Assembly (NCBI GenBank): GCA_963813025.1 | Contig: CAWEXO010000014.1 | Coordinates: forward strand, 438,481 to 502,480 | DNA length: 64,000 bases | Reading direction: 5' to 3' | DNA from: an uncultured Verrucomicrobiae bacterium | GTDB lineage: Bacteria; Verrucomicrobiota; Verrucomicrobiia; Chthoniobacterales; JAFAMB01 | Shown here: positions 1 to 16,975 of the stretch, piece by piece | Layout of the letters: the number at the start of each line of letters is the position of its first letter | Position numbering within the stretch: the stretch's first letter is position 1 | Notes under the pieces: model-generated | Database searches by the model: none | The model's input: only the letters and a program-made list of their open reading frames with translations | What the model was told of the DNA's origin: nothing | Position numbers and translations under genes: made by a program

Positions 1-296
1 CGCTGCGCAAACTCTTTGCGGCCCTTCGTCCCGGCGGTTTACTCCTGGTTTTCGAACACAACCCTTGGAACCCAATCACCAGCTGGATGATTCGCCGGAC
101 CGAGGTTGATCGTTACGCAGTGCTCCTCTCACCGGCCACCATGGAGCATTTGGTGATCGAAGCTGGATCGCAGGTGGTTGCCAAGGAATTCTTCCTCTTT
201 TTCCCACCGCGATTTCGCTGGCTTTCCGCTGCGGAGACTTGCCTTCGAATTATCCCGTTGGGCGGACAGTACCTTGTAGCCGCGAGAAAACCGTAG
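1..296 (+). CDS. class I SAM-dependent methyltransferase, 3' part (runs off window start)
   Basis: Frame open from position 3: LRKLFAALRPGGLLLVFEHNPWNP...GGQY; the LxPGG and FEHNPxNP motifs are typical of glycan-locus methyltransferases. Confidence 0.75.
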   Translation, partial: LRKLFAALRPGGLLLVFEHNPWNPITSWMIRRTEVDRYAVLLSPATMEHLVIEAGSQVVAKEFFLFFPPRFRWLSAAETCLRIIPLGGQYLVAARKP

Positions 297-337
297 AAGT
301 TTTGGGAGTGCGCGCGAACAAGTGGTACAGGCTTCCA

Positions 338-675
338 GGGCGTGTCGGACTTTGGGTGATCTGTGGCGCGCGCAATCGAGCTATGGTTCGAAGCGAGGTT
401 AGAGACATGTCTCAACCCGTTTTTGTTCCTGCGCCGGTAGGGCGAAAATTTATTCGAGCGTTAGCGAGAACTTGTTTGAGCCTTCTGGAGCGGGTGGCTC
501 ACCCAAGCGTCCGGCTCGAATAAAGAGATCGTCTCGCAGCACCCAAGGTCGGTAGGGTCAAGCTCCCGCTTGACCTCCTTGGTGTTGGATCAATCTGGAT
601 CCGGACGAGCTGGAGCTCATCCCTACCGCCAATCGACTTGATGGAGCGCTACAGATCCCAAAATCCGACACGCCC
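338..675. mobile_element. non-autonomous MITE-like element (copy 1) inserted in a REP loop
   Basis: TIRs GGGCGTGTCGGACTTTGGG.. (338) and ..CCCAAAATCCGACACGCCC (675), flanked by the direct repeat TTCCA (333-337, 676-680). Removing it restores the hairpin ACAGGC-TTCCA-GCCTGT. Confidence 0.85.
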
Positions 676-766
676 TTCCAGCCTGTCCGATTTTAGGACC
701 GGCAGGATGCCGGTATCACTTTCACGCGCTTGAGAAAGGCTCTAGCCGTCCAGGTAGTACGCCGAT

Positions 767-790
767 GTAGCGCGGACGGCCTCGTCCGTA
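767..790 (+). repeat. REP family B (GTAGCGC[G/C]GACGGCC..GTC) palindrome
   Basis: GTAG foot plus imperfect hairpin; related copies at 3519-3542 (-), 11468-11493, 11575-11600 and 18749-18774. Confidence 0.8.
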
Positions 791-1029
791 TTCCTGAGGG
801 TGCACCGGTGCACCGCGGGTCTCGACGCCGTCATACTCAGAGCGGCCCTCCCTCCCTCGCTAGAGCTATGGCGGACACAGCCAGGACGCGAGCCGCGGGG
901 TGACAGGATTACCGGCGCTAAAGCAGCAGCCTATGCTCTTTCTGCTCCTCCGGAGCGAAGTGGGCAACGCACTGGCGGAGCCAACAGGTTACGTCCCAGG
1001 CCGTCTGCGCTACTTCGTTGCTCAGCTAT

Positions 1030-2595
1030 CTAATTGCCGGGATCAGGCTGCGGACCCCAATCGGGTCCCGGATTGAGCGCAATACCCTGCGGGTTGACGT
1101 TTGTTCCGTTCAGGAACCAGGCGCCCACCGAATAATTCTGTGTGTTAACCCAAAAAATATCAGAAACGGAGCTGCCATCCAGGTTTAAGCCCCCAAAGGC
1201 CTGCCAGCCTGGCGGCGCGGCCATGTTGAGCATCGGCGTAGAGAAGCTCAAGCCGCCGGTAAATGTCCAGAGGCCGACTTGACCGGTCTCCGTGTTTTCC
1301 CAAAGCAAATCGTCACTCGCCTTTCCACTGAAATGCCCGATTCCGCGCAGTCGCCAGTTTAAGGGGGGCGAAGCAAGCGAAACCTCGTTGACGACCTGAA
1401 AGTTGGAAACAAACCATGCACCCACCAAGCCGCTGGTCCTGTTTCTCCAGATAATTTCCGGTATTCCGTCCCCGTTAATGTCCGCCACTCCGACCAAAAC
1501 CCAATCTGTTGGAATTGTGACAGCTGACTTCTCAACGAAAGTTAAGTTGCCGAGGTTTTGGGAGATTACGGCTGTGCCGGAGCTCGGGTCGTATTGCACC
1601 ACGTCCGGATTTCCGTCTCGATCGAAATCCGCAAAAGCTAAAACAGGATAATTGACCGGAAGATTAAAATTTTGGATCGAAGTGACGGTCGGTCCGTTCA
1701 TAAACCAAACTCCGAAACTGCCGCCGGAGCCCGTGTCATGAAACACAATATCCGTCTTACCGTCGTGATTTAGGTCCGCTAACCCCACGATCTGCCAATT
1801 GCTCGACGTTGACCCAATGACCGCGATCTGGTTCACGGTGGTCCCGTTCATCAACCAAACCCCGATTTGGTTGGTCTGATAATTGCGCCACAACAGATCG
1901 CTTTTCCCGTCGCCATTAAAATCCGCTGCCGGAAAGACTTGGCTGACGGCTGCAACTCGCGGTCCATAGAGATATTGTCCTCCGGCAATGTCGTCGGCTG
2001 TAAGATCGTCCGTGTTGCTGATACGCGAGTTCATGATGGCGTTCACCGTCTGGCCTGCTTGGTCGGGATGATCGAGACCAATGAAGTGGCCGAGTTCATG
2101 GAGTGCCACCCGACGGATGTCGATCGGCGATTGCACCAAATCGCCCCGGTACGAATTCCAGGCATCGCTGCTACTAAAAATGATGTCGGCTTCGGCGAAC
2201 GTTTGGGGATTGCCCGTATAATAGTAAATTTCGGTAATCGCCAGCGTTTCGCCTCCCAGGCTATCTCCTCCGGCCGAGGAGCCAAAACCGATCTCATTGA
2301 CACCATCGTTCAATTCGAAGCCATTCGGGTTGGAACCCTCAATCGTCCCGATCTGGAGTCGCTCCAGGTATTGATTCCAGTCGGCGACGGCCGCATCGAA
2401 AACCTGGTCAAAGCTGTTCGAACGGTCGTAGAGCGGGAATGCGGGCAATAGTCCCCCGAGCTTGGACTGCGAAGCGTTCAGGTTAGTATAAATCGTGGGG
2501 TTGGGAATTCCCCAAACGATTCCCTCTAACACGTAGGCCGATGCCTGGGAACAGAGCGCGACCAGCGCGAGAAAGGCTGAATGATAAACTTTCAT
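1030..2595 (-). CDS. secreted matrixin-family (M10-like) zinc metalloprotease with C-terminal FG-GAP/VCBS-like repeats
   Basis: Signal peptide; HELGHFIGLDH zinc motif; Met-turn AIMN; repeated D-x-N/D-x-D-G-x-x-D motifs (ADFNGDGKSD, ADLNHDGKTD, ADFDRDGNPD, ADINGDGIPE). Confidence 0.9.
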   Translation of the reverse strand: MKVYHSAFLALVALCSQASAYVLEGIVWGIPNPTIYTNLNASQSKLGGLLPAFPLYDRSNSFDQVFDAAVADWNQYLERLQIGTIEGSNPNGFELNDGVNEIGFGSSAGGDSLGGETLAITEIYYYTGNPQTFAEADIIFSSSDAWNSYRGDLVQSPIDIRRVALHELGHFIGLDHPDQAGQTVNAIMNSRISNTDDLTADDIAGGQYLYGPRVAAVSQVFPAADFNGDGKSDLLWRNYQTNQIGVWLMNGTTVNQIAVIGSTSSNWQIVGLADLNHDGKTDIVFHDTGSGGSFGVWFMNGPTVTSIQNFNLPVNYPVLAFADFDRDGNPDVVQYDPSSGTAVISQNLGNLTFVEKSAVTIPTDWVLVGVADINGDGIPEIIWRNRTSGLVGAWFVSNFQVVNEVSLASPPLNWRLRGIGHFSGKASDDLLWENTETGQVGLWTFTGGLSFSTPMLNMAAPPGWQAFGGLNLDGSSVSDIFWVNTQNYSVGAWFLNGTNVNPQGIALNPGPDWGPQPDPGN

Positions 2596-2616
2596 GAGTT
2601 CCGATTCTTGGGGACC

Positions 2617-3225
2617 CTATTGGTTCAGCGCTTGGCGAAGTCGACCGGCAAATTGATCCACTGTATCGGCTGACCGCAGATAGCTTCGCGTCGTTGTGTC
2701 CGCCGTTGCCGGGAGATGAGACTTGAAATCCACCTGGGCGGAGACTGGTTGCCCCCAGTACCGATAAACCCGGTCAACCTGGCTTTCATTGTCGTGAATG
2801 ACACGCAATGCGCCCTGTTGCATTCCTAAAACTGGGCTGACCATCGATTTTTCCGGTGAATAAGAGAAGAGAATGTAGCGCTCCCCTACCGCGAACTGGG
2901 GAACCCCGGGAACTTTCAAGCCCCGATCGCCGACTTCGCCGCCGAGGAATTCCAGGGATAAGGTCTGCGCCGCTGGACCTTTGATCGTCGCATTCACTGT
3001 GAAATTCACCCTGGTACGAATCGATTTTACTCCGACCGGCGCGACCCAGTAGGAGTTCACACTCTGGACCGTAGCGTCGACAATCACATCGGCTTGCTGG
3101 GCAATTTGCGGTAGATCCAGGGTTCTGACCGTCGCGCCGTGCACGGACCAGCAGGTGGCCGTCCAGAGGGTTGTGCAGATGAGCAATGACCGTAGATCGA
3201 AGTAACACCGTTTGTTCTGGCTCAT
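2617..3225 (-). CDS. secreted hypothetical protein co-oriented with the protease (resembles N-terminal pre-domains of matrixin-like proteins)
   Basis: Signal peptide, then ATVRTLDLPQIAQQADVIVDATVQSV...GGEVGD..LKVPGVPQFAVGERYILF; 21 bp upstream of the protease. Confidence 0.75.
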   Translation of the reverse strand: MSQNKRCYFDLRSLLICTTLWTATCWSVHGATVRTLDLPQIAQQADVIVDATVQSVNSYWVAPVGVKSIRTRVNFTVNATIKGPAAQTLSLEFLGGEVGDRGLKVPGVPQFAVGERYILFSYSPEKSMVSPVLGMQQGALRVIHDNESQVDRVYRYWGQPVSAQVDFKSHLPATADTTTRSYLRSADTVDQFAGRLRQALNQ

Positions 3226-3360
3226 AACGAAAAGCTTAGACGCCGGTTTTGGAAAAAAGTGACGATATTATTGAAAAGAATCCGAGAGCAAGCCTGCATC
3301 GTTCGCAAATTCCTCGTGATTTGCCGGGCGATGCAGGCTTGCCGCTTTTTTTGTGAAGAA

Positions 3361-3412
3361 TTTTGGAGTGCGGGCGACTTGTCGCCGCTTTAGGATCCGC
3401 GCGGAGCGCGGA
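3361..3412 (+). repeat. GGAG-type REP-like repeat (family D)
   Basis: TTTTGGAGT.CG.GCGACTTGTCGCCGCTTT.GG..CCGCGCGGAGCGCGGA; second copy at 6212-6262. Confidence 0.75.
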
Positions 3413-3562
3413 TGACAGAAGGACGGAACACGAAGCCGGAGTTCCGTGAAGAAGAAACCTGCCGGGTAGCCGCGCTCCGCGCCGGTCTAAAGGCGGCGAG
3501 CATCCACTCGCCAACAATTACGGACGGGGCCGTCCGCGCTACGGCTCCAGCCGCTCAGATCC

Positions 3563-3644
3563 CCGGTAGGGCGAGAATTTATTCGAGCCGTCTTGGGATG
3601 TGGCAACCTCTCCGTGCGGCTCGAATAAATTCTCGCCCTACCGG
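3563..3644. repeat. REPIN, family A (GGTAGGGCGAGAATTTATTCGAGCCG inverted doublet)
   Basis: Perfect 28-bp inverted arms around a short spacer; same sequence as the REPINs flanking the RAYT. Confidence 0.9.
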
Positions 3645-4696
3645 CGCTGCGCCCTCTGAACCCAGGACTCGTGGATTTCTTCAAAGGTCTTTCGAAGGCC
3701 CTTCGTGATCGTCCAGCCGGGGTAATGCGCTTTCATTTTGCGCAAATCAGAAATGTAGCAGATATGGTCGCCGATCCGGTTTTGCTCGACGTATTCGTAG
3801 CGCATCGGCAGACCGGAAATTTCCTCGATCAGTCGGAAGGCTTCCAGGATTGAAATCGAATTTTCGCGGCCGCCTCCAAGGTTGTACACCTCGCCGACTT
3901 TCGGATTCATAAGAAACTGATCGATAAAGCTGGCGACATCGGCCGAGTGAATGTTATCGCGGACCTGTTTCCCTTTGTAACCGAAGACTTTGTACACTGT
4001 GCCCTCGAGATTGCACTTGACTAAGTAGCTCAAAAAACCGTGGAGCTGGACACCGGAATGGCTCGGTCCGGTCAGACAGCCTCCCCTTAAACAGCAACTC
4101 GGCAGGCCGAAATAGCGGCCATACTCCTGAACCATCACGTCGGCAGCCAGTTTTGACGCCCCGAAAACAGAATGGAGCGTCTGGTCGACCGGGAATTTTT
4201 CGGAGATTCCAAAAAAATCCTCGGCATCGGCATAGTCCCAGCGAGTCTCGCGCTCAATCAATGGCAACTGATTCGGGCCATCGCCGTAGACCTTATTGGT
4301 TGATAGATGCACGAATGGCGCTTCGGGAGCGTGACGTCGCACCGCTTCCAAAAGGTTCAACGTGCCTCCGGCATTCACATCGAAATCGTCGAAAGGCCGG
4401 GTGGCAGCTAGATCGTGGCTTGGTTGAGCGGCTGTGTGCACGATTGCCTCGGGCCGTATTTCTGCCACCAACTCGCTCACACCTGACCGATCCCTGATAT
4501 CCAGCGAAAAATGGCGAAACGTCTTGAACTTCTTTTTCAGGTGTTCGGTATTCCAGGACGTATCACCGGCTGGTCCGAAGAAGTCCGCCCGCATGTTGTT
4601 ATCAATGCCATGAACCTCCCAGCCTTCTTCGGCAAAGTAGGTTGCGACCGTGCCGCCGATCAAGCCGCCTGAACCGGTCACCAGAACCTTTCGCAT
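3638..4696 (-). CDS. NAD-dependent epimerase/dehydratase (CDP-paratose 2-epimerase-like extended SDR)
   Basis: GSGGLIG Rossmann motif, [22 protein letters not shown]; start chosen at MRKVLVTG. Confidence 0.88.
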
Positions 4697-4747
4697 TGGA
4701 CCTGATACAGGCAGATGCGGCTGGAAGTCAAGGAGTTGCACTAGTTG

Positions 4748-4804
4748 CAGGAGTCAGGAGTCGAGAGTCAGGAGTTCAAGGAGTTCAAGGAGTTCAAGGA
4801 GTTC
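4748..4804 (+). repeat. short tandem repeats (CAGGAGT / GGAGTTCAA)n
   Basis: Direct 7- and 9-mer repeats; reverse-complement tract at ~7954-8008. Confidence 0.8.
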
Positions 4805-4824
4805 ACCCGCTCAACCGCTGGCCA

Positions 4825-4878
4825 TGGCACCGGCATCCTGCCGGTCCTGAAAACCTGACAAGCTGGAAGCTCATCCAC
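4825..4878 (+). repeat. REP family C doublet (GTGG-type: GGCACCGGCATCCTGCCGGT...ACA.GCTGGAAGC)
   Basis: Related to 321-337+676-721, 6372-6418, 6917-6940, 13330-13382 and 21921-21967. Confidence 0.8.
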
Positions 4879-4906
4879 CGGCATTTGCGATTTGTGATAT
4901 GCGATC

Positions 4907-5069
4907 TGCGCGAAGCGCGACAGGAGGTCCGGACTCACCGGGATCACCGAATGATCATGGACGAGTCAATTGTAAGCTTCGGCGCTCTCGCGCTACATCC
5001 CTCCGCTGAAGCCGCTCCCGCCGCTCCCTCCGCTCAGTTGACTGATCCGTTCCCTGGCTGATCAGCTGC
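4907..5069 (+). repeat. ~160-bp repeat, inverted partner of 7776-7937
   Basis: 4907-5047 matches the reverse complement of 7797-7937 with about 4 mismatches by eye; partial third copy at ~12760-12830. Confidence 0.9.
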
Positions 5070-5115
5070 TAACTTTCCCCTTGTGCCTGGCCCACACTTC
5101 CACCACCAATCTAGC

Positions 5116-6186
5116 ATGCGAGTTCTGGTAACCGGCGCCTGCGGGTTTGTCGGATCGAACCTGGTTTCTGCGATTCGGGAACATTCTGCGAGTAACCAGG
5201 TAATCGGGATCGACAATTTTATTCGCCTCGGCACTCACCTCAATCGGAAACGCCTGGAGGCGCTTGGGTGCCGGATTCTATACGGCGATATCCGCTGCCG
5301 GAGTGATCTGGAAAACGTCCCAGCGGTCGACTGGGTGATTGACGCAGCGGCCAATCCCAGCGTGTTGGCCGGGGTCGACGGCCGCTCGACGTCGCGTCAG
5401 GTAATTGAGCACAATCTTTCTGGTACAACCAACATTCTAGAATACTGCCGCGAACATCGAGCTGGACTAATTTTGTTGAGCACGAGCCGAGTTTACTCCG
5501 TGCCGGCATTGGCGGGATTGTCTCTTCTAGAAAAGGAATTTCGCTTCGAGCTGGACTCTGACTTGGCCCAGCCTGTCGGGACGAGCACAGCGGGTCTGAG
5601 TGAGGAATTCAGTACCACAGCCCCAATCTCGCTGTATGGCGCAACGAAGCTGGCCTCGGAAACATTGGCACTCGAATTCGGCCATGCGTTCCAGTTCCCG
5701 GTTTGGATCGATCGCTGCGGAGTGCTCGCTGGGGCCGGACAATTCGGAACGGCCGAGCAAGGCATCTTTGCTTATTGGCTGCACGCCTGGAAAGCGAATC
5801 GCGCGCTCCGCTTTATCGGGTTTGGCGGATCCGGGAAACAGGTCCGAGACGCCTTTCATCCGACCGATCTTGCCCGCTTGGTTCTCTCTCAGCTGCAGGA
5901 TACCGACTACTCCGCGGCCGAACGGATTTGGAACGTCGGAGGCGGTGCGGCGAACTCGATGTCGCTTGCCGAACTCTCTCAATGGGCTTCTCAACGGTTT
6001 GGATCGCGCGAAGTCGCTCGCGATTCGCGGATGAGGCCCTTCGATATCCCCTGGGTGGTGATGGATTTCGCGCGAGCGGCTCACCGGTGGAAATGGGAAC
6101 CCGCGATTGTGCTTCCTGCCTTGCTCGAAGAAATTGCTGAGCACGCGGAACGGTTCCCTGACTGGCTGCAAGTCTGCGCAGCCTGA
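5116..6186 (+). CDS. NAD-dependent epimerase/dehydratase (CDP-paratose 2-epimerase-like SDR), paralog
   Basis: GACGFVG, STSRVYS, YGATK catalytic motif, GKQVRD. Confidence 0.88.
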   Translation: MRVLVTGACGFVGSNLVSAIREHSASNQVIGIDNFIRLGTHLNRKRLEALGCRILYGDIRCRSDLENVPAVDWVIDAAANPSVLAGVDGRSTSRQVIEHNLSGTTNILEYCREHRAGLILLSTSRVYSVPALAGLSLLEKEFRFELDSDLAQPVGTSTAGLSEEFSTTAPISLYGATKLASETLALEFGHAFQFPVWIDRCGVLAGAGQFGTAEQGIFAYWLHAWKANRALRFIGFGGSGKQVRDAFHPTDLARLVLSQLQDTDYSAAERIWNVGGGAANSMSLAELSQWASQRFGSREVARDSRMRPFDIPWVVMDFARAAHRWKWEPAIVLPALLEEIAEHAERFPDWLQVCAA

Positions 6187-6419
6187 CGATCGGAACATGA
6201 TAGCCAGCGGCTTTTGGAGTACGCGCGACTTGTCGCCGCTTTCGGACCGCGCGGAGCGCGGACAGGCAAAACGGAGTGGCAGGGAGAACAGTCAAAGTCA
6301 GATCAACCGATTTTCACAGAAGAACACGGCGCGGCGTAGCCGACAACCAAAGCGGCTGTGCCGAGTCCAGTGACAGGCTGGAAGCCTGTGCCACTTTCCA
6401 CCGTGACACCGGCATCTTT

Positions 6420-6752
6420 GGGCGTGTCGAACTTTGGAAATCTGTGGTACGCCACGACGTGATCGGCGGTAGGGATGAGCTCCTGCTCGTCCCGATTTAG
6501 ACCTGATCAGCATTAAGGAGGTCAAGCAGGAGCTTGACCTGAGCTTGACCTGAGCTTGACCTGAGCTTGACCTGAGCTTGACCTGAGCTTGACCTGAGCT
6601 TGACCCTACCGACCTTGGGTGTCGTGAGACAGCCTCTTTAATTCGCGCCCTACCGGCGCCGGACCAAAGACCCATTGGGACAAGTCTCTAAGCTCCCTTT
6701 TGAACCATAGCTCGGCTGCGCGCGCCAGAGATTTCCAAAGTCCGACAGACCC
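6420..6752. mobile_element. MITE-like element (copy 2, opposite orientation) inserted in a REP-C loop
   Basis: TIRs GGGCGTGTCGAACTTTGGAAATCTGTGG and CCAGAGATTTCCAAAGTCCGACAGACCC; flanks ATCTT(T)/ATCTT; homologous end to end to 338-675; empty site at 13260-13427. Confidence 0.85.
6530..6606 (+). repeat. 11-bp tandem array (GAGCTTGACCT)x7
   Basis: Directly visible; present as a single unit in the homologous element at ~556-575. Confidence 0.95.
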
Positions 6753-6952
6753 ATCTTGCCGGTGAACCTGCAAATTGTCCGGCTTCTCTGAAATCTTCGC
6801 AAAAAAACAACATTTTCACGGACAGTAGTACGAATATCGCTAAGAAGAGAAATCAACTTTGTGCAAGCGAAGCGAAACTTTGTGACCTGTGCGGCCTTCT
6901 GTGGTAAGTCCGACAGACCGGCAGGATGCCGGTGTCACTTGACTTTTGAAAA

Positions 6953-7810
6953 ATGAACAGTTCACCAACGGCTCTGACCCCGGTTGCGGCATCCGATAAT
7001 GCTCCTCTGAAGCTGCTTTCAGTCATCATCCCCGCTCTGGATGAAGAAGGCTGCATCGCCTCGACCGTGGAGCATCTTGACGTCGCGCTGCGGCTTCACG
7101 GGATTCCGCACGAAATTGTTGTTGTGGACGATGGGAGTACGGATAGGACCTGGGCCATCCTCGGTGAGCTGCAGGATCGATTGCCGTCGCTAAAACCGGT
7201 TCGGAACAACGGTGAACACGGCTTTGGACGAGCGGTCCTCTGCGGGTTCCAGCAGATGGCCGGCGACGCTGCCGTGATTATGATGGCCGACGAATCCGAC
7301 GATTGTCGTGATGTGGTTCGTTACTGGCAAAAACTGAATGCGGGTTTCGATTGCGTATTCGGCAGCCGCTTTATCAAAGGTGGCGGGGTTATCGATTATC
7401 CCTGGTTAAAGTTGCAGGTAAACCGCCTGGCGAATTTGTTCTTGCGGCTGCTCTTTGGTATCTCGCTCAACGATACGACCAACGCTTTCAAAGCTTACCG
7501 GCGGACCGTGATCGAGGGCTGCCAGCCTCTCATCGCGCCGCACTTCAATCTTACGGTCGAAATTCCTTTGAAAGCGATTGTTCGAGGATATAGCTGGACC
7601 GTCATCCCGATCACCTGGCGCAATCGCCGGAGCGGCGAAGCCAAGCTGAAAATCAAAGAAATGGGCAGCCGCTATCTCTTTATCTGTTTGTATGTCTGGT
7701 TGGAAAAGTATTTCAGCCGCGGTGACTATCGGAAACGCGCCACTCTTGCCGACACAAACAACGCGGGCCGGGAGGCAGCTGATCAGCTGGGCAACAGATC
7801 AGTCAATTGA
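6953..7810 (+). CDS. GT2 glycosyltransferase (polyprenol-phosphate sugar synthase-like)
   Basis: LSVIIPALDEE, VVDDGSTD, MADESD, GSRF, DTTNAFKAYR. Confidence 0.9.
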   Translation: MNSSPTALTPVAASDNAPLKLLSVIIPALDEEGCIASTVEHLDVALRLHGIPHEIVVVDDGSTDRTWAILGELQDRLPSLKPVRNNGEHGFGRAVLCGFQQMAGDAAVIMMADESDDCRDVVRYWQKLNAGFDCVFGSRFIKGGGVIDYPWLKLQVNRLANLFLRLLFGISLNDTTNAFKAYRRTVIEGCQPLIAPHFNLTVEIPLKAIVRGYSWTVIPITWRNRRSGEAKLKIKEMGSRYLFICLYVWLEKYFSRGDYRKRATLADTNNAGREAADQLGNRSVN

Positions 7811-7937
7811 GCGGAGGGAGCGGCGGGAGCGGCTTCAGCGGAGGGATGTAGCGCGAGAGCGCCGAAGCTTACAATTGACTCGTCCATGATCAGTCGGTGA
7901 TCTCGGTGAGTCCGGGCCTCCTGTCGCGCTTCGCGCA
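7776..7937 (-). repeat. inverted copy of 4907-5069, overlapping the GT2 3' end
   Basis: Reverse complement of 4907-5069. Confidence 0.9.
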
Positions 7938-8048
7938 AAGCGCGGATGCCGGAGGAACTCCTTGAACTTCCTTGAACTCCATGAACTCCTTGAACTCCTT
8001 GACTCCTGATTGCATACCGCAAATCGCCATGCAATATCCGCCTTAGGA

Positions 8049-8714
8049 ATGAACCAAGAGACAGGCAGCGAACTGGCAGTTGAGTACCGGCTCAGGTTTG
8101 CTCAACACGCGGATTATCGGCGCAAAGTTTGGCAGGAGCTATATCGCGTTTACTTTCACCAATTCATCCGAAAGGAAGACACTGTTCTGGACCTTGGATG
8201 TGGGTGGGGAGAATTTATTAACGTTGCTCAGGCCAACAAAAAATACGGGATGGACTTGAACCCGGAATCGGCCAAAATCCTCAATCCTGACATCACTTTC
8301 CTTCATCAGGACTGCTCGACACCTTGGCCAATACCGGCGAATTCACTCGACGTGGTGTTCACGAGCAATTTCTTCGAGCACCTGCCTTCGAAACAACATC
8401 TCAACGCCACAGTGAAGGAAGCTTGGCGAAGTCTGAAGCCGGGCGGCGTATTGATCTGTATCGGCCCAAATATCCGTTACCTTTACAATGACTACTGGGA
8501 CTTTTTTGATCATTATCTGCCTCTCTCGGACCGGGCGATGCAAGAGCTTATGCGGATGACGGGCTTTTCCCGAGTAAAGGTCATTCGAAAATTCCTGCCG
8601 TATACGATGAGTCGGGGCTGGCAACCGCCCTTATTCGTTGTCCGTGCGTACGCCAGTTTGCCTTGGCTATGGCCGATTTTCGGCAAGCAGTTTTTGGTCG
8701 TAGCTACCAAATAG
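8049..8714 (+). CDS. class I SAM-dependent methyltransferase
   Basis: VLDLGCGWG, DVVFTSNFFEHL, LKPGG. Confidence 0.9.
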   Translation: MNQETGSELAVEYRLRFAQHADYRRKVWQELYRVYFHQFIRKEDTVLDLGCGWGEFINVAQANKKYGMDLNPESAKILNPDITFLHQDCSTPWPIPANSLDVVFTSNFFEHLPSKQHLNATVKEAWRSLKPGGVLICIGPNIRYLYNDYWDFFDHYLPLSDRAMQELMRMTGFSRVKVIRKFLPYTMSRGWQPPLFVVRAYASLPWLWPIFGKQFLVVATK

Positions 8715-8733
8715 AGACTAACAAAGGCTTTCC

Positions 8734-8999
8734 GGGTCCGTTACACTTGCCGCTGTTGGTAGGGCGAGAATTTAGAGGCTGTCTCACAACGTGGCCTCGG
8801 CCCTGCTCCGGTAGGGGCGAAAAGTTATCCGAGCTTTAGCGAGGACTCGTTTGAGCCGGTCACAGGGGGTGTGCCAAATCTCCAAGACGGCTCAAACAAG
8901 TTCTCGCTGACGCTCGAATGAATTTTCGCCCTACCGATCTTGTCCGACTCGCAAACAAATATCAAATCGCACCGGCGTGCTCCAAAGTCCGATACGCCC
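8734..8999. mobile_element. probable third, degenerate MITE copy carrying family-A REPINs
   Basis: Right end CCAAAGTCCGATACGCCC; left end degenerate GGGTCCGTTACACTTG; flanks AAAGGC-TTTCC | TTTTC-GCCTGT. Confidence 0.6.
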
Positions 9000-9083
9000 T
9001 TTTCGCCTGTGACAAGCGGACCCGACAAGGCAGGGCTGCGCATCTCAGTGGACCGCGCCTCCTCTTCTCAAAAGAACGACAAA

Positions 9084-10331
9084 TCATGCCGCACCGAGAT
9101 TCGCGATACGGCAAATGACAGACTCGCATTCTAAAACCATGATTTTGGAGCGTTCTCTGAACTCCTGCATGGCCGTTGGCGTCGAGCGCTCACTTGCGGC
9201 TGATTCGAGGATATCGGCAAGTTTTCTTACCTCGTCTTTCCAGCTGAATCTCTTCAACTCCTTGTCTCCTTTTTCCACTAGTTCCTCTCGAAGCCCGGCG
9301 TCGACGGTCAGGCGCTCCATCGCATGAGCTAACTCGCCGGGGTCTTCTACATTGACATAGAAGGCGGCGCTCCCGGCTATCTCGGTCTGACTGCCGCCTC
9401 GTCCGCAGATGACGGGCAGGCGGAAGTACATCGCTTCAAGCAGCGGGATGCCGAACCCCTCGTACCGGGATGGGAAAACCAGAGCGGAGGCGTCGCTGTA
9501 GGTTTGCGCGAGCTCCTGGTCGCTGATCTCCCCAAGAAACTTTACGTAGTTATCGACGCCAGTTTCGGCAGCGAACGCCTGGAGTTTCTGAATCCTGTCG
9601 CCGCGTCCAGCGGTCAACGCCAGGTTCCAGGCGTTCTGGCCGAGCCGTTCCCTATAGAGCCGGTAGGCGCGAAAAAGATTTTTGTGATTCTTGTGCGGCC
9701 AGGGTCGGGCGGGATATAGAAAATAGTGTTCGCCATTGCGCGGCGTGCAGCGAGCCAAGCGGCCGTGGATCGTCTGATAGGTCCGGTAGATTCGCTGCAG
9801 CGGAACCGCGTACGAAGTATGGAGCCGTTGGCGAGTAAAGTCTGAGGGTACTTGAAAAATAGCTCCGCAGACGCTGAGCTTTTTGAGATTAAAATGCCGC
9901 CAAATGCGGTCCGATTTGCTGAGCGTACCGGGATAATCCAGTTGAATCAAATCCGGTACTTGAACGACCAGCGGCACGCGGAGCGGGAGAGTTAGAAATC
10001 GTCCGAGCGGCGAGTACATGACGTCGATCTGATGCCTTCGGCAAAACGTCGCGATCCGCTGCCGGCTTCGAAGCTCCTCGATGGCATCGCCCATCGCATG
10101 AGTACGGTCGCGCCCGAACTTTGTACATATGACCTCCGCCCGGCCGGCGAAACGACCCTCGATTTCGTCGAGAGCGATCTCCGAACAAAATAACGTTACC
10201 GTAAACTTGCTCGAAAAATAACTGAGGAGTCCGTCGATAAACTCGAACGTGGCGAACTTGATTCCGCCATTCTCCGCGTCCGGCAGGGTCGGCGTGAGAT
10301 CGACGCCGACTCGAATAACAGCCTCTTGCAT
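9084..10331 (-). CDS. GT4 glycosyltransferase
   Basis: YPARPWPHKNH, FPSRYEGFGIPLLEAM; start uncertain (ORF extends to 10409; the ATG at 10331 has GGAGG upstream). Confidence 0.88.
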   Translation of the reverse strand: MQEAVIRVGVDLTPTLPDAENGGIKFATFEFIDGLLSYFSSKFTVTLFCSEIALDEIEGRFAGRAEVICTKFGRDRTHAMGDAIEELRSRQRIATFCRRHQIDVMYSPLGRFLTLPLRVPLVVQVPDLIQLDYPGTLSKSDRIWRHFNLKKLSVCGAIFQVPSDFTRQRLHTSYAVPLQRIYRTYQTIHGRLARCTPRNGEHYFLYPARPWPHKNHKNLFRAYRLYRERLGQNAWNLALTAGRGDRIQKLQAFAAETGVDNYVKFLGEISDQELAQTYSDASALVFPSRYEGFGIPLLEAMYFRLPVICGRGGSQTEIAGSAAFYVNVEDPGELAHAMERLTVDAGLREELVEKGDKELKRFSWKDEVRKLADILESAASERSTPTAMQEFRERSKIMVLECESVICRIANLGAA

Positions 10332-10353
10332 AACCCTCCTGTCCGGTTCCGAT

Positions 10354-11343
10354 TCAGTTCGCGCGAACGCGATCATCTGTCCTGCTTTGCTCCTTAAGAA
10401 TCGCTTCAATCATCAGTTTAACCACGTCTTCCATGTGATGTTTAGGCGTCCACCCCAACTCACGAGCGGCTTTGGTCGGGTCGCCCTTACCTATCATGAT
10501 TTCTGTAGGCCGAAAGAGCGCCTTGTCGATGACGGTATACTCTTGCCAGTCCAGGCCAAGCTGACCGAATGCCGTCGCCACAAACTCCTCCAGCTTTCTG
10601 CTTTTGCCGGTGGCGATGACATAATCTTCCGGTTTCTCCCGCTGCAGCATGAGATACATCGCCTCCACGTAGTCCGGCGCCCAGCCCCAATCTCGCTGGA
10701 TTTCGATGTTTCCCAGCTGCAGCCTTTCCTTTTCACCCCGGGCAATCCGGCAGGCTGCCGCTATGATCTTTTTTGTAACGAACCGTTCCGGCCGAAGCGG
10801 CGACTCATGGTTAAAAAGGATACCGGAACAGGCAAACAGCTTGTATGCCTCCCGATAGTTGGCAACCTGCCAGAAAGCAGCGGATTTTGCGACCGCATAA
10901 GGACTTCGCGGACGAAATGGTGTTTCCTCGTTAGCGGCGGCTCCACCGAGATCCCCGAAGCATTCGCTCGAGCCCGCATTATAGAGCTTGGTACCCGATC
11001 CGGTAAAACGGATAGCTTCCAAGAGGTTCAAAGTTCCGAGATAGATGCTATCCTGAGTTTCCACGGGTTGCTCGAAAGAGAGCGAGACTGAGGATTGACC
11101 GGCCAAGTTGTAGATTTCGTCTGGTTTAACCTTAAACAAAACTTGGATCACGCTTCGGAAATCGTTCAACGCGACGGACTCAAGTCGAACGTCTTTGCGG
11201 ATCGCGAGCCTTTCCAGGTTCTTGAACGAAGAAACCTGGGCATCGCGGGATGTGCCGCAAACAGTGTACCCCTTACCGAGGAGAAACTTCGCCAGATACG
11301 CCCCATCCTGTCCTGACACCCCGGTGATCAACGCGATCTTCAT
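10354..11343 (-). CDS. gmd: GDP-mannose 4,6-dehydratase
   Basis: ALITGVSGQDGAYLA, NLAGQSSV, PRSPYAVAK, GILFNHESPLR, RDWGWA. Confidence 0.93.
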   Translation of the reverse strand: MKIALITGVSGQDGAYLAKFLLGKGYTVCGTSRDAQVSSFKNLERLAIRKDVRLESVALNDFRSVIQVLFKVKPDEIYNLAGQSSVSLSFEQPVETQDSIYLGTLNLLEAIRFTGSGTKLYNAGSSECFGDLGGAAANEETPFRPRSPYAVAKSAAFWQVANYREAYKLFACSGILFNHESPLRPERFVTKKIIAAACRIARGEKERLQLGNIEIQRDWGWAPDYVEAMYLMLQREKPEDYVIATGKSRKLEEFVATAFGQLGLDWQEYTVIDKALFRPTEIMIGKGDPTKAARELGWTPKHHMEDVVKLMIEAILKEQSRTDDRVRAN

Positions 11344-11431
11344 GAAAGCCTCAATCTGTAGGTTTACGTCCAGACTTGAGCAAGCGATTGTTTGGCGCCG
11401 GTTTGCACTTGGCTTGCCATGATTTTCTACT

Positions 11432-11646
11432 GCTGTTTGCAATTCTGTGCAAAACCGATCGCGTCCTGTAGCGCCGACGGCCGCGTCGGTATCTGGGACG
11501 CTGACGCACGAGGCCATACGTCTCATTCACTAGTGCTAGCTGTTTGCAATTCTGTGCAAAACCGATCGCGTCCTGTAGCGCCGACGGCCTCGTCGGTATC
11601 TGGGAGGCTCACGCACGAGGCCGTACGTCTCATTTCACTAACGCTA
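11432..11646 (+). repeat. 107-bp tandem duplication containing REP-B, in the divergent gmd/GT4 intergenic region
   Basis: Units 11432-11538 and 11539-11646, few mismatches. Confidence 0.92.
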
Positions 11647-12767
11647 TGAAGATCGGGTTTGATGTCGCTCAAACCTGTTCCCCAAGAGCCGGGTGCGGTT
11701 GGATGGCTGATCTTTTGGCGCGAGCATTGGTTGAGGCTGCGCCAAGGCACAGTTTTTTTCTTTACCATCAGTTCGGCCGTTGGCTGAGCTGGAATACCGT
11801 TTGGGGAACGCACATCACAGCGAAAAATGTGCGTGAACCGTTCCGCTGGACAGTCCCGCCGGTTGCCAGACGGATTTGGGATCGGGTTGCCGAAGGAAAC
11901 GGCGGGTTGCCCGGTAATCCGGATATCGTTCATTCCAATTCGTTTCAAGCGCCGGACGCAGGTCGGGCACGGCTGGTCTACACTGTCTATGACGTCAGCT
12001 TCTGGGTGCACCCTGAATTCAGCACTGAGGAAAACTGCATCCGGTGCGAGCGGGGCACCCGGCAAGCATTTGAAAACGCAGCCGGCCTGCTCTTTATCTC
12101 CAGGAGCACATTGGCGGAGGCAGTTCGCTTATTTCCCGATTTGTTGAAGCGGAAAGGCCTATCGTCGGTTGTGGCGCCGCTCGCCTCGAGGTTTACTCGG
12201 GCCATCGCTCCGCGTCTCGGTGCCCCAAGAGGAGATTGGCTGGCGGTCGGCTCGCTCGAACCAAGAAAGAATTACGAATGCCTGCTCTCCGCTCTGGAGC
12301 TTTACTGGAGTGCCTCCAAGCATCCCCGAAAACTGCTTATTGCCGGAGGGAAAGGATGGAAATCGGAACAGCTGCACGAACGAATTGCTCGTCTCCAGAG
12401 GAAGGGAATGGTTCGCTATCTCGGTTACGTTTCGGACCAAACTTTATTGGAGCTTTACCGAAGCTCCTTCGCTTTGGTGTTCCCCAGCCACTACGAAGGC
12501 TTTGGTCTGCCGGTAGTGGAGGCGTTCAGCCAGGCATGTCCCGTTATCACGCGACCGGAAAGCAGTTTGGGTGAGATCGGAGGATCGGCTGCCGTCTACA
12601 CCGGGAATGACCCTGAGCAAATCACCCAAGCGATGTTGCGGCTGGAGCAGGATCCGGAGCATTACCGCGAAGTCTCGCGAGCCTCATTAGCGCAGGCCGG
12701 CAATTTCAGTTGGGAAAAAACCGCGCAAACGGTCCTGGAGCTTTATGAACAGATCGTTGACAGCTGA
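11646..12767 (+). CDS. GT4 glycosyltransferase (WbpY/MtfB-like)
   Basis: MKIGFDV, VGSLEPRKN, FPSHYEGFGLPVVEA. Confidence 0.9.
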   Translation: MKIGFDVAQTCSPRAGCGWMADLLARALVEAAPRHSFFLYHQFGRWLSWNTVWGTHITAKNVREPFRWTVPPVARRIWDRVAEGNGGLPGNPDIVHSNSFQAPDAGRARLVYTVYDVSFWVHPEFSTEENCIRCERGTRQAFENAAGLLFISRSTLAEAVRLFPDLLKRKGLSSVVAPLASRFTRAIAPRLGAPRGDWLAVGSLEPRKNYECLLSALELYWSASKHPRKLLIAGGKGWKSEQLHERIARLQRKGMVRYLGYVSDQTLLELYRSSFALVFPSHYEGFGLPVVEAFSQACPVITRPESSLGEIGGSAAVYTGNDPEQITQAMLRLEQDPEHYREVSRASLAQAGNFSWEKTAQTVLELYEQIVDS

Positions 12768-13259
12768 ACAATTGGCAGATGTCAGTCAGTCGAGCGGTGG
12801 GAGCGGCGGGAGCGGGTTCAGCGGGGGGAGCGTGGACAGTAACTGTCCGTGAAAATTCGTGCAGTTCGCGAGTAATTAATGCTGGGAGCCGGAATTTAAG
12901 TTCATCGGCATGATGGGCCTTTCGGATTTCGAACATAACTCCGCACCTAGCGCAGCGATGCTATTGTAGCAAATCGGGAATTCGCCGGGCTCAACATGAT
13001 AGCATTAGAGTCGCGCACGGAGGTCGCGCAGCCACAGAGGATCTCTGATCCCGCGCCGGCAGGGCAAAAATTAATCCGAGCCGCAGGCGAGGACTCGTTT
13101 GAGCTGGGCGCCGGAGTTGCCACCGCCCAAGGCGGCTAAACAGGTTCTCGCCTGGCGCTCGTCCGCCAAGGCTGGATCGGTCTACCAGTAGTGGGCCGGC
13201 GGGATGTTCAAGAGCAGTACTCGATCAACGAAACAAATTGTAATATAAGTCAATCACTC

Positions 13260-13427
13260 CGTACTACGGTCCGTGAAAATGCTGTTTTCCTGCGAGGATT
13301 TACGAGGAGCCGAAACAGTTTGAAGATTGACCGGCAAGATGCCGGTGTCACGGTGGAAAAGTGGCACAGGCTTCCAGCCTGTCAGTGGACTGCGCGGCCG
13401 CTTTGGTTGCGGCTCCGCCGCGCCGTG
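13260..13427. repeat. composite repeat (two REP-C hairpins); empty-site allele of 6325-6832
   Basis: Its reverse complement equals 6325-6418 joined to 6758-6832. Confidence 0.85.
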
Positions 13428-13462
13428 CACTCCGTGGCCTTCGTGCGAGGTCCTCTCTCACT

Positions 13463-14755
13463 TCACACTCCGGGAACCCGGGCTACTAAATCGATCTCCG
13501 TCGGCTCCGGCGCAAGATTCTGCTCGATCGAGATGTGCGCCGGCAGATTGAGGAGCCCTGAATAGGACTCATTGAGCTCGGAGTGAATGGTCAGCTCCGG
13601 GGTTGCGCGGAGAAATGCAACTGGATGTCCACTGCGGAAAATCGTGCAGCTCAGGATGTACTCACCGGGTTTCAACGGGAGACTAGGCAGATGCAGGGTA
13701 AGCGCGATCTTCCCGACGGCTGCAGTCAACAGCTGTTCCTGGTGGGTCAACAGCACCAGGCCTTGAATATCGGAGATCGAAATGGCGACTTGGCCATCCA
13801 TGATGGTTTCCAGCAGCTCAATCTCAAATCGAAAGCTGAACGGGTGCTGGCTCGGAGCGATCAAGTGCTTATCCGGCCCGTTTTGGGGCTCGATTGTCCA
13901 ACCGACGAGGCGAGCCGGCGGTTCCGGTTGTGCCGGATCAGCGTTCTCCGGCTTATGCTCGTACAGTGACATCACTTCCTGGGTGGTTTGCTTTTCGTAA
14001 GCGGAGACCACTTCGTGCGTAGGTCCGAACATCTCGATCCGGCCGTGCCGGAGCCAGAGACAGACCTGACTCATCTTCCGCACAGCACCCATGCCATGAC
14101 TGACCAGGATGGCTGCGTGGCCTTCGTCGATGATCTCCTCCATTCGATCAAAACACTTCTTCTGGAAAACGGCGTCGCCAACCGCTAACACCTCGTCCAG
14201 AATGACAATCTCCGGGTTGAGATGCGCTGCCACGGAGAAGGCCAATCGAACGTACATGCCGCTCGAGTAATTCTTGACCGGCACGTCAAGAAACCGTTCC
14301 AGGCCGGAAAACTCAACGATGCGGTCGAAGCGGTCTTCGACCTCTTTTCGAGAGAGACCGAGCATCGCCCCGTTCAAATAGATATTGTCACGGCCGGAGA
14401 ACTCCGGATGAAACCCGGTACCGACCTCCAGCAAGCTGGCTAGCCTACCATAAACTTTCACCCGGCCCGTCGTTGGCTGCGTGATCCGGGATAAGACCTT
14501 CAGGAGCGTCGATTTTCCGGCGCCGTTCTCACCGATGATCGACAAAGTCTGTCCCTGCGAAATTTGGAACGAGACATCGCGCAACGCCCACAGCTCGCGC
14601 CGCGAGGCGCCCTGATCTTCGTTCGCCTCCGGCTGCAGAAGCTGTCGGATCGCTCTCTTGCTCCGGTAAGCAACATCTTCGAAAAAAGTGCGTCGGTTGC
14701 GTTCCCCCAGGAAGAAACGTTTCGACAAGTTCTGCGCTTGAATGACGACGGACAT
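13463..14755 (-). CDS. wzt: polysaccharide ABC exporter ATP-binding protein with C-terminal Wzt-C-like domain
   Basis: GENGAGKST, YSSGMYVRLAF, LDEVLAVGD; start overlaps the wzm stop. Confidence 0.92.
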   Translation of the reverse strand: MSVVIQAQNLSKRFFLGERNRRTFFEDVAYRSKRAIRQLLQPEANEDQGASRRELWALRDVSFQISQGQTLSIIGENGAGKSTLLKVLSRITQPTTGRVKVYGRLASLLEVGTGFHPEFSGRDNIYLNGAMLGLSRKEVEDRFDRIVEFSGLERFLDVPVKNYSSGMYVRLAFSVAAHLNPEIVILDEVLAVGDAVFQKKCFDRMEEIIDEGHAAILVSHGMGAVRKMSQVCLWLRHGRIEMFGPTHEVVSAYEKQTTQEVMSLYEHKPENADPAQPEPPARLVGWTIEPQNGPDKHLIAPSQHPFSFRFEIELLETIMDGQVAISISDIQGLVLLTHQEQLLTAAVGKIALTLHLPSLPLKPGEYILSCTIFRSGHPVAFLRATPELTIHSELNESYSGLLNLPAHISIEQNLAPEPTEIDLVARVPGV

Positions 14756-15597
14756 CAGATCGAATCGGTGAACGTGCCTTCGGCTTGAACGAAAGAAAAA
14801 ACTCCGATCACCAGGAAAAAGATGGTCATCAACGTTGCGATCAAGGCTGGTTGGATGGGAACAACTTCGGCGCCGAAAAGGCTCGCTCGATACCACTCCA
14901 CCATGCTGGCCATCGGGTTAAGGTTCAAGAGCCATTGCAGATGCGCCGGCACCGTTGACCGAGGGTAAATAACACAGCTGCCGTACATCAGCAGATTCAA
15001 GCTGTAACCCACGACCATGTGCAGGTCGCGGTATCGGACCGTGGCTGCAGCAATCAGGCATCCGAGGCCGAGTCCCAAGAGAGAAATCTCCAGAAGAATG
15101 ATCGGCAAGAGAACGATGTGCGGGCTGAGATCAACTCTCCTGCCGATTAGATTGTACACCGCAACAACGACCAGGAGAACCAGAAATTGCGCCGCGAAGT
15201 TCAAAAGATTCATGCTGACCTGGCTCAGCGGAACGATCAGCCGCGGAAAATAGATCTTCCGAAAAATGCCGCTGCTTCCGAGGAAAGTGTAAGACACCTG
15301 GGTGACACAATTTGAAAAAAAGAACCAGAGAATGATCCCCGATAGATAGAAGACGAGCGGCGGAAGGTCCGTGGTGGGAAGCCGGGCGATTTGACTGAAA
15401 ATCACGACGAAGACGAGCGCAGAAAGGAAAGGCTGGAGGAAAAACCAAAGCGGACCAAGCACGGTCTGCTTGTAAGCAGCTACAAAATCGCGTTTAACCA
15501 GCAGCAGATAAAGCTCGCGAAAGGCCCAGAGTTCCTTTGGGTCGCTACTCAGCAACTTCTCTGCATCGACAACATAGGTTGGGCTTGGGTTACTCAT
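14755..15597 (-). CDS. wzm: polysaccharide ABC exporter permease
   Basis: RDFVAAYKQTVLGPLW, KIYFPRLIVP, RYRD, LNPM. Confidence 0.92.
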   Translation of the reverse strand: MSNPSPTYVVDAEKLLSSDPKELWAFRELYLLLVKRDFVAAYKQTVLGPLWFFLQPFLSALVFVVIFSQIARLPTTDLPPLVFYLSGIILWFFFSNCVTQVSYTFLGSSGIFRKIYFPRLIVPLSQVSMNLLNFAAQFLVLLVVVAVYNLIGRRVDLSPHIVLLPIILLEISLLGLGLGCLIAAATVRYRDLHMVVGYSLNLLMYGSCVIYPRSTVPAHLQWLLNLNPMASMVEWYRASLFGAEVVPIQPALIATLMTIFFLVIGVFSFVQAEGTFTDSI

Positions 15598-15726
15598 GCG
15601 CAGGCCGAGACTCGGCCTTGCCCCACCAATGCACGCAGGTGCACTCTTTGCAATTTCTTGCAAGGACCGTTCGGAATCCTCTTATAAGCCGAATGGCGTA
15701 TCTCGCAACATTGCCCCGGCCTGTGC

Positions 15727-16091
15727 CGGTAGGGCGAAAACTTGTTTGAGCCGTCTTCGCCATAGCTTTAGCGACGGAGGAGCCGTCTTGAACGCGCCTA
15801 CCCGGATAAAAAAAAGCGCCTCCCAACATTGGCCCTTGCCGGCAGGGCGAAAATTTAGAGGCTGCCTTGCAACATGGCCTCGCCCCTGCGCCGGTAGGGT
15901 AAGCCCCTGGCGGTAAGGCGAGAATTTATTCGAGCCGGACGAGAGGTTGCCACATCCCAAGGCTGCCTCGCAACGTGGCCTTGGCCCTGCTCTGGTAGGG
16001 CGAGAATTTATTCGAGCCGTCTTTGGATGTGGCAACCTCTCCGGACGGCTCGAATAAATTCTCGCCCTACCGCCACAGGGCCCGCCCTACC
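15727..16091. repeat. cluster of family-A REPs/REPIN on the 3' side of the RAYT (perfect doublet 15994-16071)
   Basis: Multiple GGTAGGGCGAGAATTTATTCGAGCC copies and fragments. Confidence 0.9.
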
Positions 16092-16128
16092 GCCACAGGG
16101 CCGATAATGTTGCGAGTGCTTAGAGCCG

Positions 16129-16593
16129 TCACCACCAATCAGCAAATCGGGTCATCTCACCTTGGAATCGCCAACGTGCTGGCTCGTCCGTCAAGCCCGC
16201 CCTAATCGGATTCATGAGTATATACCGGTACCTTGCTTCAGCGCTGTCGTGGGCGCGAATCCGATGATGGAATGCCCCGGACTGCCATCTGCACCCTGGC
16301 TGATCGAATCGTAGTGAGACCCGCGATTTCCAAATCTTGATCCAAAGATCCAGTCCGGCTTGGCCTGAGCCCGGCCAAGCAAAGAAATGCAGGTGATCAG
16401 GCATAATCATGTAGCGCCCGACGTGCCAGTCCGTTGCTTCTCCCCACGCTGCAACGAGCAATGTGTGTACCGTATCGTTAGCCAGCCATCTGACTCGCTT
16501 TCGGGTGCACACGGTGACAAGCACCAAAGTGGGCTGTTCGTGGACAAAAAGAACACCTTTTGCCGGGTGCTTCCGCTGCGGTCGGTAATACAT
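16129..16593 (-). CDS. rayT: REP-associated tyrosine transposase (RAYT / TnpA-REP, Y1 HUH nuclease)
   Basis: VTVCT, HUH motif MPDHLH, WQ..AFHHRIR, catalytic Y..NP.RAGL; flanked on both sides by GTAG REPINs. Confidence 0.92.
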   Translation of the reverse strand: MYYRPQRKHPAKGVLFVHEQPTLVLVTVCTRKRVRWLANDTVHTLLVAAWGEATDWHVGRYMIMPDHLHFFAWPGSGQAGLDLWIKIWKSRVSLRFDQPGCRWQSGAFHHRIRAHDSAEARYRYILMNPIRAGLTDEPARWRFQGEMTRFADWW

Positions 16594-16656
16594 AAAACAG
16601 AATTACTAGTTGTGTTTTAAATCGACAATTTAAAAATACTCTTAATGTTGAGCTCT

Positions 16657-16799
16657 GGCCCTGCGCCGGTAGGCCTCGGCCCTGCGCTGGTAGGGCGAGA
16701 ATTTATTCGAGCCGTCCGGGGAGATTGCCACATCCCAAGACGGCTCGAATAAATTCTCGCCCTACCAGCGCAGGGCCGAGGCCTACCAGGACAGGGCCC
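16657..16799. repeat. long family-A REPIN hairpin upstream of the RAYT (core 16689-16766)
   Basis: About 60-bp inverted arms with nested GGTAG feet. Confidence 0.92.
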
Positions 16800-16975
16800 A
16801 AGAGGGGGAAGGAGGGTCGCGCGCACTACTAGACACGCTCCCACCGCTTGACAGCGGTCCTCCGACAGGCAAACTCTTGGCCACACTGGACCAGCACAAG
16901 GAGCAAGATGTTGGGAAACATTCCGCTGTGGAGGAATTGCCAGAGATTAAGAGGATGCCCGGCTCTCCTTCTATA

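Follow-up and report, generated by a model that had tools for sequence, protein, structure and literature searches.

The 64-kb window analysed here (the whole stretch of DNA, of which positions 297–766 are shown above) belongs to a 4.42-Mb genome of 16 contigs (G000, 80% complete) and holds three copies of a short element with inverted ends, a set of REP hairpins and a gene for a RAYT-like tyrosine transposase. The features are listed below by window position; G001 is a second genome of the same genus.

322–337, plus strand: 5′ half of a target REP of family C (GTGG tag; arm ACAGGC, 327–332) with the first TTCCA (333–337); the intact form is at 13361–13384
338–675, plus strand: copy 1 of a putative IS1182-type MITE, 338 bp, terminal inverted repeats 338–355 and 658–675
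435–461, plus strand: family-A REP within copy 1; REPs of this family also border the RAYT-like gene
551–630, unstranded: two more GTAG-tagged hairpins in copy 1, found in inverted orientation in copy 2
676–686, plus strand: second TTCCA (676–680) and 3′ arm GCCTGT (681–686) of the split REP
697–720, unstranded: intact family-D hairpin ACCGGC-AGGAT-GCCGGT, an unused target, kept in G001
767–790, plus strand: intact family-B GTAG REP with a 4-nt loop, genome-wide the commonest target (6-bp duplication)
6408–6419, plus strand: left-hand flank of copy 2, made up of the 5′ half of a family-D hairpin, ATCTT and one extra T
6420–6752, minus strand: copy 2 of the putative MITE, 333 bp, orientation opposite to copy 1; an 11-bp unit is expanded in tandem at 6519–6617
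6753–6763, plus strand: right-hand flank of copy 2, made up of ATCTT and the 3′ arm GCCGGT
8734–8999, unstranded: copy 3, decayed, with family-A REPs inside; its flanks TTTCC and TTTTC belong to a family-C-like hairpin
13329–13384, unstranded: empty doublet of a family-D and a family-C hairpin, the pre-insertion state
15983–16082, unstranded: doublet of family-A REPs on the downstream side of the RAYT-like gene
16129–16593, minus strand: RAYT-like tyrosine transposase, 154 aa (NF047646, E 6.8e-19, 68.2 bits, under the cut-off of 80)
16680–16775, unstranded: doublet of family-A REPs on the upstream side of the RAYT-like gene

The ends of copy 1 pair over 18 nt with one mismatch, and removing the copy reconstructs an empty site identical to 13366–13382. 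An earlier note on this DNA had described exactly this, copy 1 in a GTGG-type REP with TTCCA doubled, and both its coordinates and its empty site agree with ours. It had placed copy 2 in the loop of ACCGGC-ATCTT-GCCGGT, which is the right site, without mention of the extra T on the left, and had called copy 3 degenerate between TTTCC and TTTTC; the left end of that copy is indeed badly decayed, and the copy belongs to another subtype of ends. The claim that the elements carry GTAG-type REPs, family A among them, holds for copies 1 and 3, while copy 2 has GTAG hairpins only, with no full family-A REP at up to 4 mismatches. The 11-bp unit of copy 2 is repeated about seven times (6519–6617), which may reflect slippage or an assembly effect; a related contig in sequencing run X1 omits 66 nt of the array. 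Other repeats in the window include a 96-nt direct duplication between divergent genes (11432–11527 and 11539–11634, 96% identical), with a REP in each copy, and two sites (11467–11492 and 11574–11599) of CCGACG, a family-B variant that differs from the main target by one base pair. An inverted pair of 169-nt repeats (4901–5069 and 7775–7943) and 9-bp tandem runs (4770–4805 and 7969–8005) both bracket part of a polysaccharide gene cluster. An Rfam scan of window positions 1–17000 gave no match.

The three window copies are members of a genome-wide family. A profile of the ends, used at 18 bits or more, found 114 ends in G000 vs 1 in the reversed genome. These comprise 33 two-ended elements, 27 short (133–403 bp) and 6 long, and there are 52 orphan ends. 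Three pairings that enclose host genes (C8:59548, C8:251547, C1:211446) were left out of the 33 as chance events, and two wide pairings (C4:41824, C9:86932) were also excluded. The short elements have the properties by which a MITE is recognised: they are small, dispersed in many copies and hold no transposase. Exact duplications of 5 bp flank 7 of the 33 and exact duplications of 6 bp another 6; six more have one mismatch, three are inverted, and 11 have none. For the copy on contig C15 the right boundary was placed one base inward manually, since that end has lost one base. The 13 exact duplications of 5–6 bp compare with 23 in 10,000 random pairs, and with a mean of 1.15 and a maximum of 5 in 2000 flank swaps. 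The earlier note had proposed this genome-wide search for the termini; a third of the elements have no duplication, and 65 of the 114 ends fail a strict hairpin test (below).

The insertions are mutually independent, because few end pairs share flanks (9 of 6441 share 30 nt or more) and because G001 has intact hairpins where copies 1 and 3 sit in G000; the copies are therefore not one insertion multiplied as a block. Distal sequence is in common in 1 of 2145 pairs, and none of the 33 two-ended elements has long flanking direct repeats of the kind left by duplication of a whole hairpin. Mismatched and inverted flanks could possibly stem from recombination between copies, from attack on both hairpins of a doublet or from template switching. 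A search for reciprocal recombinants that might explain the mismatched flanks found only four candidate split duplications. Inverted duplications, in which the loop copy on the right reads as the reverse complement of that on the left (L318, L322, L327 (G001), L096 (G024), L148, G000:C1:194305), are frequent in several genomes. At G000:C4:24593 and G000:C11:576041, one-ended or end-truncated copies still have the target duplication on both sides.

Perfect hairpins of G000 were catalogued blind to element positions, and 49 of the 114 ends lie exactly at loop plus one nucleotide of an abundant hairpin, vs 7 of 1000 random positions; five other offsets from the loop hold 0–4 ends each, again of 114. 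The assigned ends fall in family B (GTAG type, 4-nt loop; 28), family C (11) and family D (10), so that three REP families are hit, not one as had been claimed, and the commonest had gone unnamed. The six duplications of 6 bp all belong to family B, whose loop has 4 nt. Among the seven 5-bp duplications the first and last bases are paired in five and unpaired in two; an exact 5-bp duplication at C15:134770 lies outside any hairpin. What is duplicated is the minimal loop together with the base pair that closes it, so that a 3-nt loop gives 5 bp and a 4-nt loop 6 bp; this loop-dependent length takes the place of the fixed 5 bp of the earlier note. Two copies that are 97.9% identical, C1:190361 in family D (5 bp) and C5:298503 in family B (6 bp), have different duplication lengths; length is therefore set by the target and not by the element. 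Both in G000 and in G007, a genome of the same family, the insertion point is fixed relative to the palindrome, whatever the loop sequence.

Hairpin structure does not account for every choice of site. The CCGACG hairpin, a family-B variant different by one base pair, has 49 intact copies and no ends, whereas CGGACG (family B) has 57 intact copies and 23 ends (Fisher p 6e-6, with the two ends of each element non-independent). CCGCGC (28 intact) and TCAAGC (18 intact) are likewise never used. As several abundant hairpins go unused, structure alone is insufficient, or timing matters: either arm sequence counts, or the unused hairpin families spread after the element had stopped moving. The suggestion that the target is a hairpin stem or structure is accordingly borne out for the loop-plus-one position and the indifference to loop sequence, and falls short where structure is taken to suffice. 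It is possible, though we think it unlikely, that the same element reads its target as duplex sequence, with inverted G-(G/A)-C arms around a flexible 5–6-bp spacer and no extrusion. The last three arm positions are biased accordingly (G at 82, G/A at 90 and C at 84 of 114 ends), which, like the perfect but unused hairpins and the CTAG target of a related element in genome G055, favours such a reading. However, duplication length tracks loop length between near-identical copies, and CCGACG matches the G-R-C arm yet has no ends. In G007 the arm ends in GTCC and several loop sequences are used, which also speaks against recognition of a duplex motif, although the G007 transposase may differ.

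A comparison with relatives for empty sites had been proposed in the earlier note, and G001 has intact hairpins at the sites that match copies 1 and 3; at the site of copy 2 it is not alignable. Beside the intact hairpin at the copy 3 site, G001 (L256, ~4100–4330) has an element with different cargo dozens of bases off, with a 5-bp duplication. The intergenic gap of copy 3 has thus been struck independently in the two genomes. There are 30 end matches in G001, and 20 surrounding regions taken from these yielded 8 two-ended elements with the same ends. Their cargo consists of GTCCC-N3-GGGAC hairpins, with no family A; by eye, 15 of 16 ends lie next to family D and one next to family C, and the duplication is exact in only 1 of the 8. 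Contigs from sequencing runs, with one low-coverage run carrying the element, contained no clean empty-site joint. In G055, L227 (G055:C80) is a full IS1182 element with related ends and a 4-bp CTAG duplication, and L055, L063, L076 and L175 have related ends next to CTAG or similar sequence; these are short and resemble L227's MITEs in other phyla.

A metagenome scan for the core of the ends returned, among the matches listed, two full-length elements of 1461 bp, L148 and L177. At least 73 ORFs lie by the end matches listed in that scan; 24 of these and one partner ORF were scanned, and 2 of the 25 are IS1182. The proteins of L148 and L177 are 424 aa long with DUF772 and DDE_Tnp_1_6 domains (PF05598, PF13751), and against the IS1182 model NF033551 (cut-off 270 bits) P0001 scores 319.8, P0002 318.2 and the G007 copies 318.5 bits. 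A core of 15–16 nt at the ends is common to the MITE and the elements of L148, L177 and G007. The likeness extends to the target: L177 has a 5-bp duplication within a GTCC/GGAC hairpin, L148 has an inverted duplication, and half hairpins flank all nine two-ended copies in G007, whose transposase is 83% identical to these proteins. Duplications in G007 are exact and 5 bp long in 4 of the 9 copies, with three different loop sequences, and not exact in 5. MITE and full-length IS1182 elements alike sit at the tips of short REP hairpins. L239 (G007:C2:5033589-5037704) is an IS1182 copy nested in an older element with similar ends, the interior of which holds the target hairpin.

Several candidates for an autonomous parent were rejected. 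The earlier note had advised a search for a long copy with the same termini enclosing a transposase, and such copies exist elsewhere (L148, L177, G007); in G000 five of the long copies hold IS110 sequence in their interior and the one on C12 a deleted IS110. A 2-kb pair in G024 also holds IS110. G000's own DUF772/IS1380-type transposases were considered as drivers, and the closest ends at their 14 loci have 5–6 mismatches of 18; the DUF772 proteins of G000 score best as ISNCY. ORFs beside end matches elsewhere encoded no DDE transposase (0 of 22 in the genome scan, 0 of 15 in relatives). No cognate transposase was found in G000 (80% complete) by tblastn at E<1e-3, nor any NF033551 match above the cut-off, and no cognate IS1182 transposase was found in G001; one occurs in only 1 of 43 genomes of the family. 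The link to IS1182 consequently rests on similarity of the ends together with matching target behaviour, and mobilisation in trans is something that we infer. Taken together, the element is very probably a non-autonomous MITE derived from an IS of the IS1182 family, which would insert at loop tips, carry REPs and be mobilised in trans. The earlier note's TIR/TSD element of DDE type has in this way acquired a likely parent, with duplications far above the controls. The MITE family is presumably decaying, its transposase missing from G000 or unassembled.

A mechanism for this element can be proposed from the sequence comparisons. An IS1182 DDE transposase would act in trans on the MITE. On both strands of a palindrome, which is probably extruded as a cruciform, it would join the 3′ ends of the element immediately 5′ of the pair that closes the loop, with some arm sequences perhaps preferred in addition to structure. 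Gap repair would afterwards copy the loop and so give rise to the duplication. The interior may have acquired REP doublets of another RAYT family (A), in which case every jump would copy REPs too, and this cargo could in turn draw in two IS110 families. Loop duplication is reportedly mentioned in a review by Siguier and colleagues.

Family A has 128 hits in G000 at up to 2 mismatches, of which 30 are in two-ended elements (32 of the 33 used, 18 kb in total) and 51 when the 350 nt inward of any end are counted as well (23–40% across both counts); the remaining 77 are elsewhere. The inference that the element spreads other REPs is upheld by these 30–51 cases. Family A is carried by 22 of the 27 short elements and lies inward of 63 of the 114 ends and outward of 2. 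Near-identical copies, cargo included, sit in different hairpin families: five copies with pairwise-linked identities of 91–98% have the same cargo at unrelated B and C sites. Family-A REPs are thus inherited cargo. None of the hits to the target families (91 for B, 22 for C, 6 for D) falls inside a two-ended element; the interiors consist of GTAG-tagged REP doublets, mosaic in arrangement and variable in REP number. Families A, B and D flank RAYT-like genes; none was found for family C.

It is improbable that the MITE has had no meaningful part in the spread of family A, the RAYT having dropped A REPs singly into resident MITEs. The 77 hits that are neither in nor just inside an element, and the mosaic interiors with their varying REP number, would fit such a history. 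The first A tag, however, lies at a fixed 81–99 nt from the left end in 32 of 41 left ends, and the five linked copies have the same cargo at unrelated sites.

Family-A REPs also serve as insertion sites for two IS110 families, at two fixed points and about ten times each, inside and outside the element (for example L001, G000:C14:355532-357202, and L002, G000:C8:159722-161737, among many other sites); a third IS110 uses other sites. Members of the IS110 family are not known as TIR/TSD elements.

One copy of the element holds a RAYT-like gene. At G000:C15:123519-125458 (L275, L309), both ends are present and flanked by a perfect TGGAA duplication in a family-C loop, and the interior contains, besides a deleted IS110 and a family-A doublet, an intact RAYT-like gene (G000:C15:124764-125225), the 154-aa product of which is 95% identical to that of window 16129–16593. 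A third copy of the gene (G000:C11:605054-605458) carries a frameshift close to its end, and no ends of the element lie in its vicinity. The three close copies are 94–100% alike at unrelated loci, with similarity stopping at family-A REPs. The four RAYT-like proteins scanned score 67.9–76.1 bits, all under the NF047646 cut-off of 80. No close homologue is present in G001 (best 48%), where each of the three corresponding intergenic sites is either shorter or occupied by other DNA, with no RAYT copy, and none of 28 RAYT loci of relatives has MITE ends. The RAYT-bearing MITE is a single copy; its insert has its left junction in a family-A REP and its right junction at a short shared stretch. That IS1182 MITEs form a second, RAYT-independent vehicle for REPINs, able to carry a whole RAYT-REPIN cassette, and that the C15 RAYT jumped as a passenger, is a doubtful proposal; entry of the gene into the C15 copy by recombination after insertion explains the data equally well. 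If true, passenger transposition would be a route for duplication of supposedly immobile RAYTs, and REP families could move between lineages by MITE.

HUH transposition is not known to make direct duplications, and the element has exact ones at 13 of 33. That the unit is a compound REPIN, its 'TIRs' being outer arms, which a RAYT of HUH type moved or which was multiplied as a block, is very hard to credit: the interior of GTAG-tagged REP doublets, inverted flanks as in REP doublets (3 of 33), the RAYT-like gene in one copy and the existence of tyrosine transposases flanked by long TIRs (PMC3733652) would accord with it, but the ends are not GTAG-tagged REPs and match IS1182 elements that encode a DDE enzyme, the flanks are independent, the cargo varies by genome while the ends are constant, and the idea is largely refuted by the autonomous IS1182 parents, which share both the ends and the choice of target.

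The IS1182-derived MITE can be compared with several known systems. IS1272 and TnSha1, IS1182-family elements of staphylococci, target hairpins with little conservation of primary sequence (PMC4923244; PMC5678879), and these papers credit Siguier and colleagues with palindrome targeting in the family. The transposase family and the hairpin targets are the same, but IS1272 as described deletes the stem-loop and makes no duplication, whereas the G000 element duplicates the loop and closing pair, is non-autonomous, carries REPs and targets RAYT-associated REPs. Duplication of the loop only is drawn as a possible outcome in PMC5678879 (Fig. 13, pathway c), and the G000 family would be natural, countable evidence for loop-duplicating IS1182 insertion, sketched there as a model. 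Its testable rule is that duplication length equals loop plus two, and a transposase that chooses intergenic hairpins could serve as a gentle insertion tool.

MITEPye1 of Paracoccus yeei shares 18-bp IS1182-like ends, intergenic location and short direct repeats, but its repeats are a fixed 4 bp, it is present in 1–3 copies per chromosome, and its description includes no REP targeting or cargo (PMC11578231). Among elements that insert into REPs, ISRm22 (assigned to the IS4 family) and ISPsy8 do so at the palindrome axis, with repeats of 6 bp and 3 bp respectively (PMC1525189), and IS1397 and IS621 also insert into REPs (PMC3184786). Hybrid repeats in 3 of 9 copies of ISRm22, ascribed to recombination, resemble the mismatched copies seen here (PMC1525189). 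Unlike the G000 element, all four are described as autonomous, each tied to one REP consensus, and without cargo. The ssr9 modules of ISPpu9 are likewise small non-coding modules of a REP-inserting IS (PMC12288879). ISPpu9 belongs to the IS110 family, which is not known for TIRs and TSDs, whereas the G000 element has both.

As in REPIN-RAYT systems (bioRxiv 2021.07.10.451892, 119735), RAYT-like genes are flanked by the cargo family and by two of the three families that serve as targets. REPINs are said in these accounts to depend on a non-jumping, single-copy RAYT, though 7.7% of RAYTs had recent duplicates in one survey. In G000, by contrast, 23–40% of family-A hits are in or just inside a MITE of putative DDE type, and there are three close copies of the family-A RAYT, of which the MITE encloses one. 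Since a quarter to two fifths of the hits lie in or just inside such an element, REP copy number need not be the work of the RAYT alone, which bears on models in which RAYT alone drives REPIN populations; movement of the RAYT-bearing copy in one piece, if it took place, would provide a missing route for RAYT duplication. In the openly accessible literature, no IS1182 MITE that targets REP loops and carries REPINs was found described. The novelty that the earlier note saw in the layered system was nevertheless overstated, as both IS1182 palindrome targeting and IS1182-derived MITEs have been published (PMC4923244; PMC5678879; PMC11578231). The hairpin-targeting habit is already attributed to the IS1182 family; added here are the loop-plus-two rule with its internal control, the lineage-specific REP cargo, which accounts for a large part of one REP family, and the single RAYT-bearing copy.
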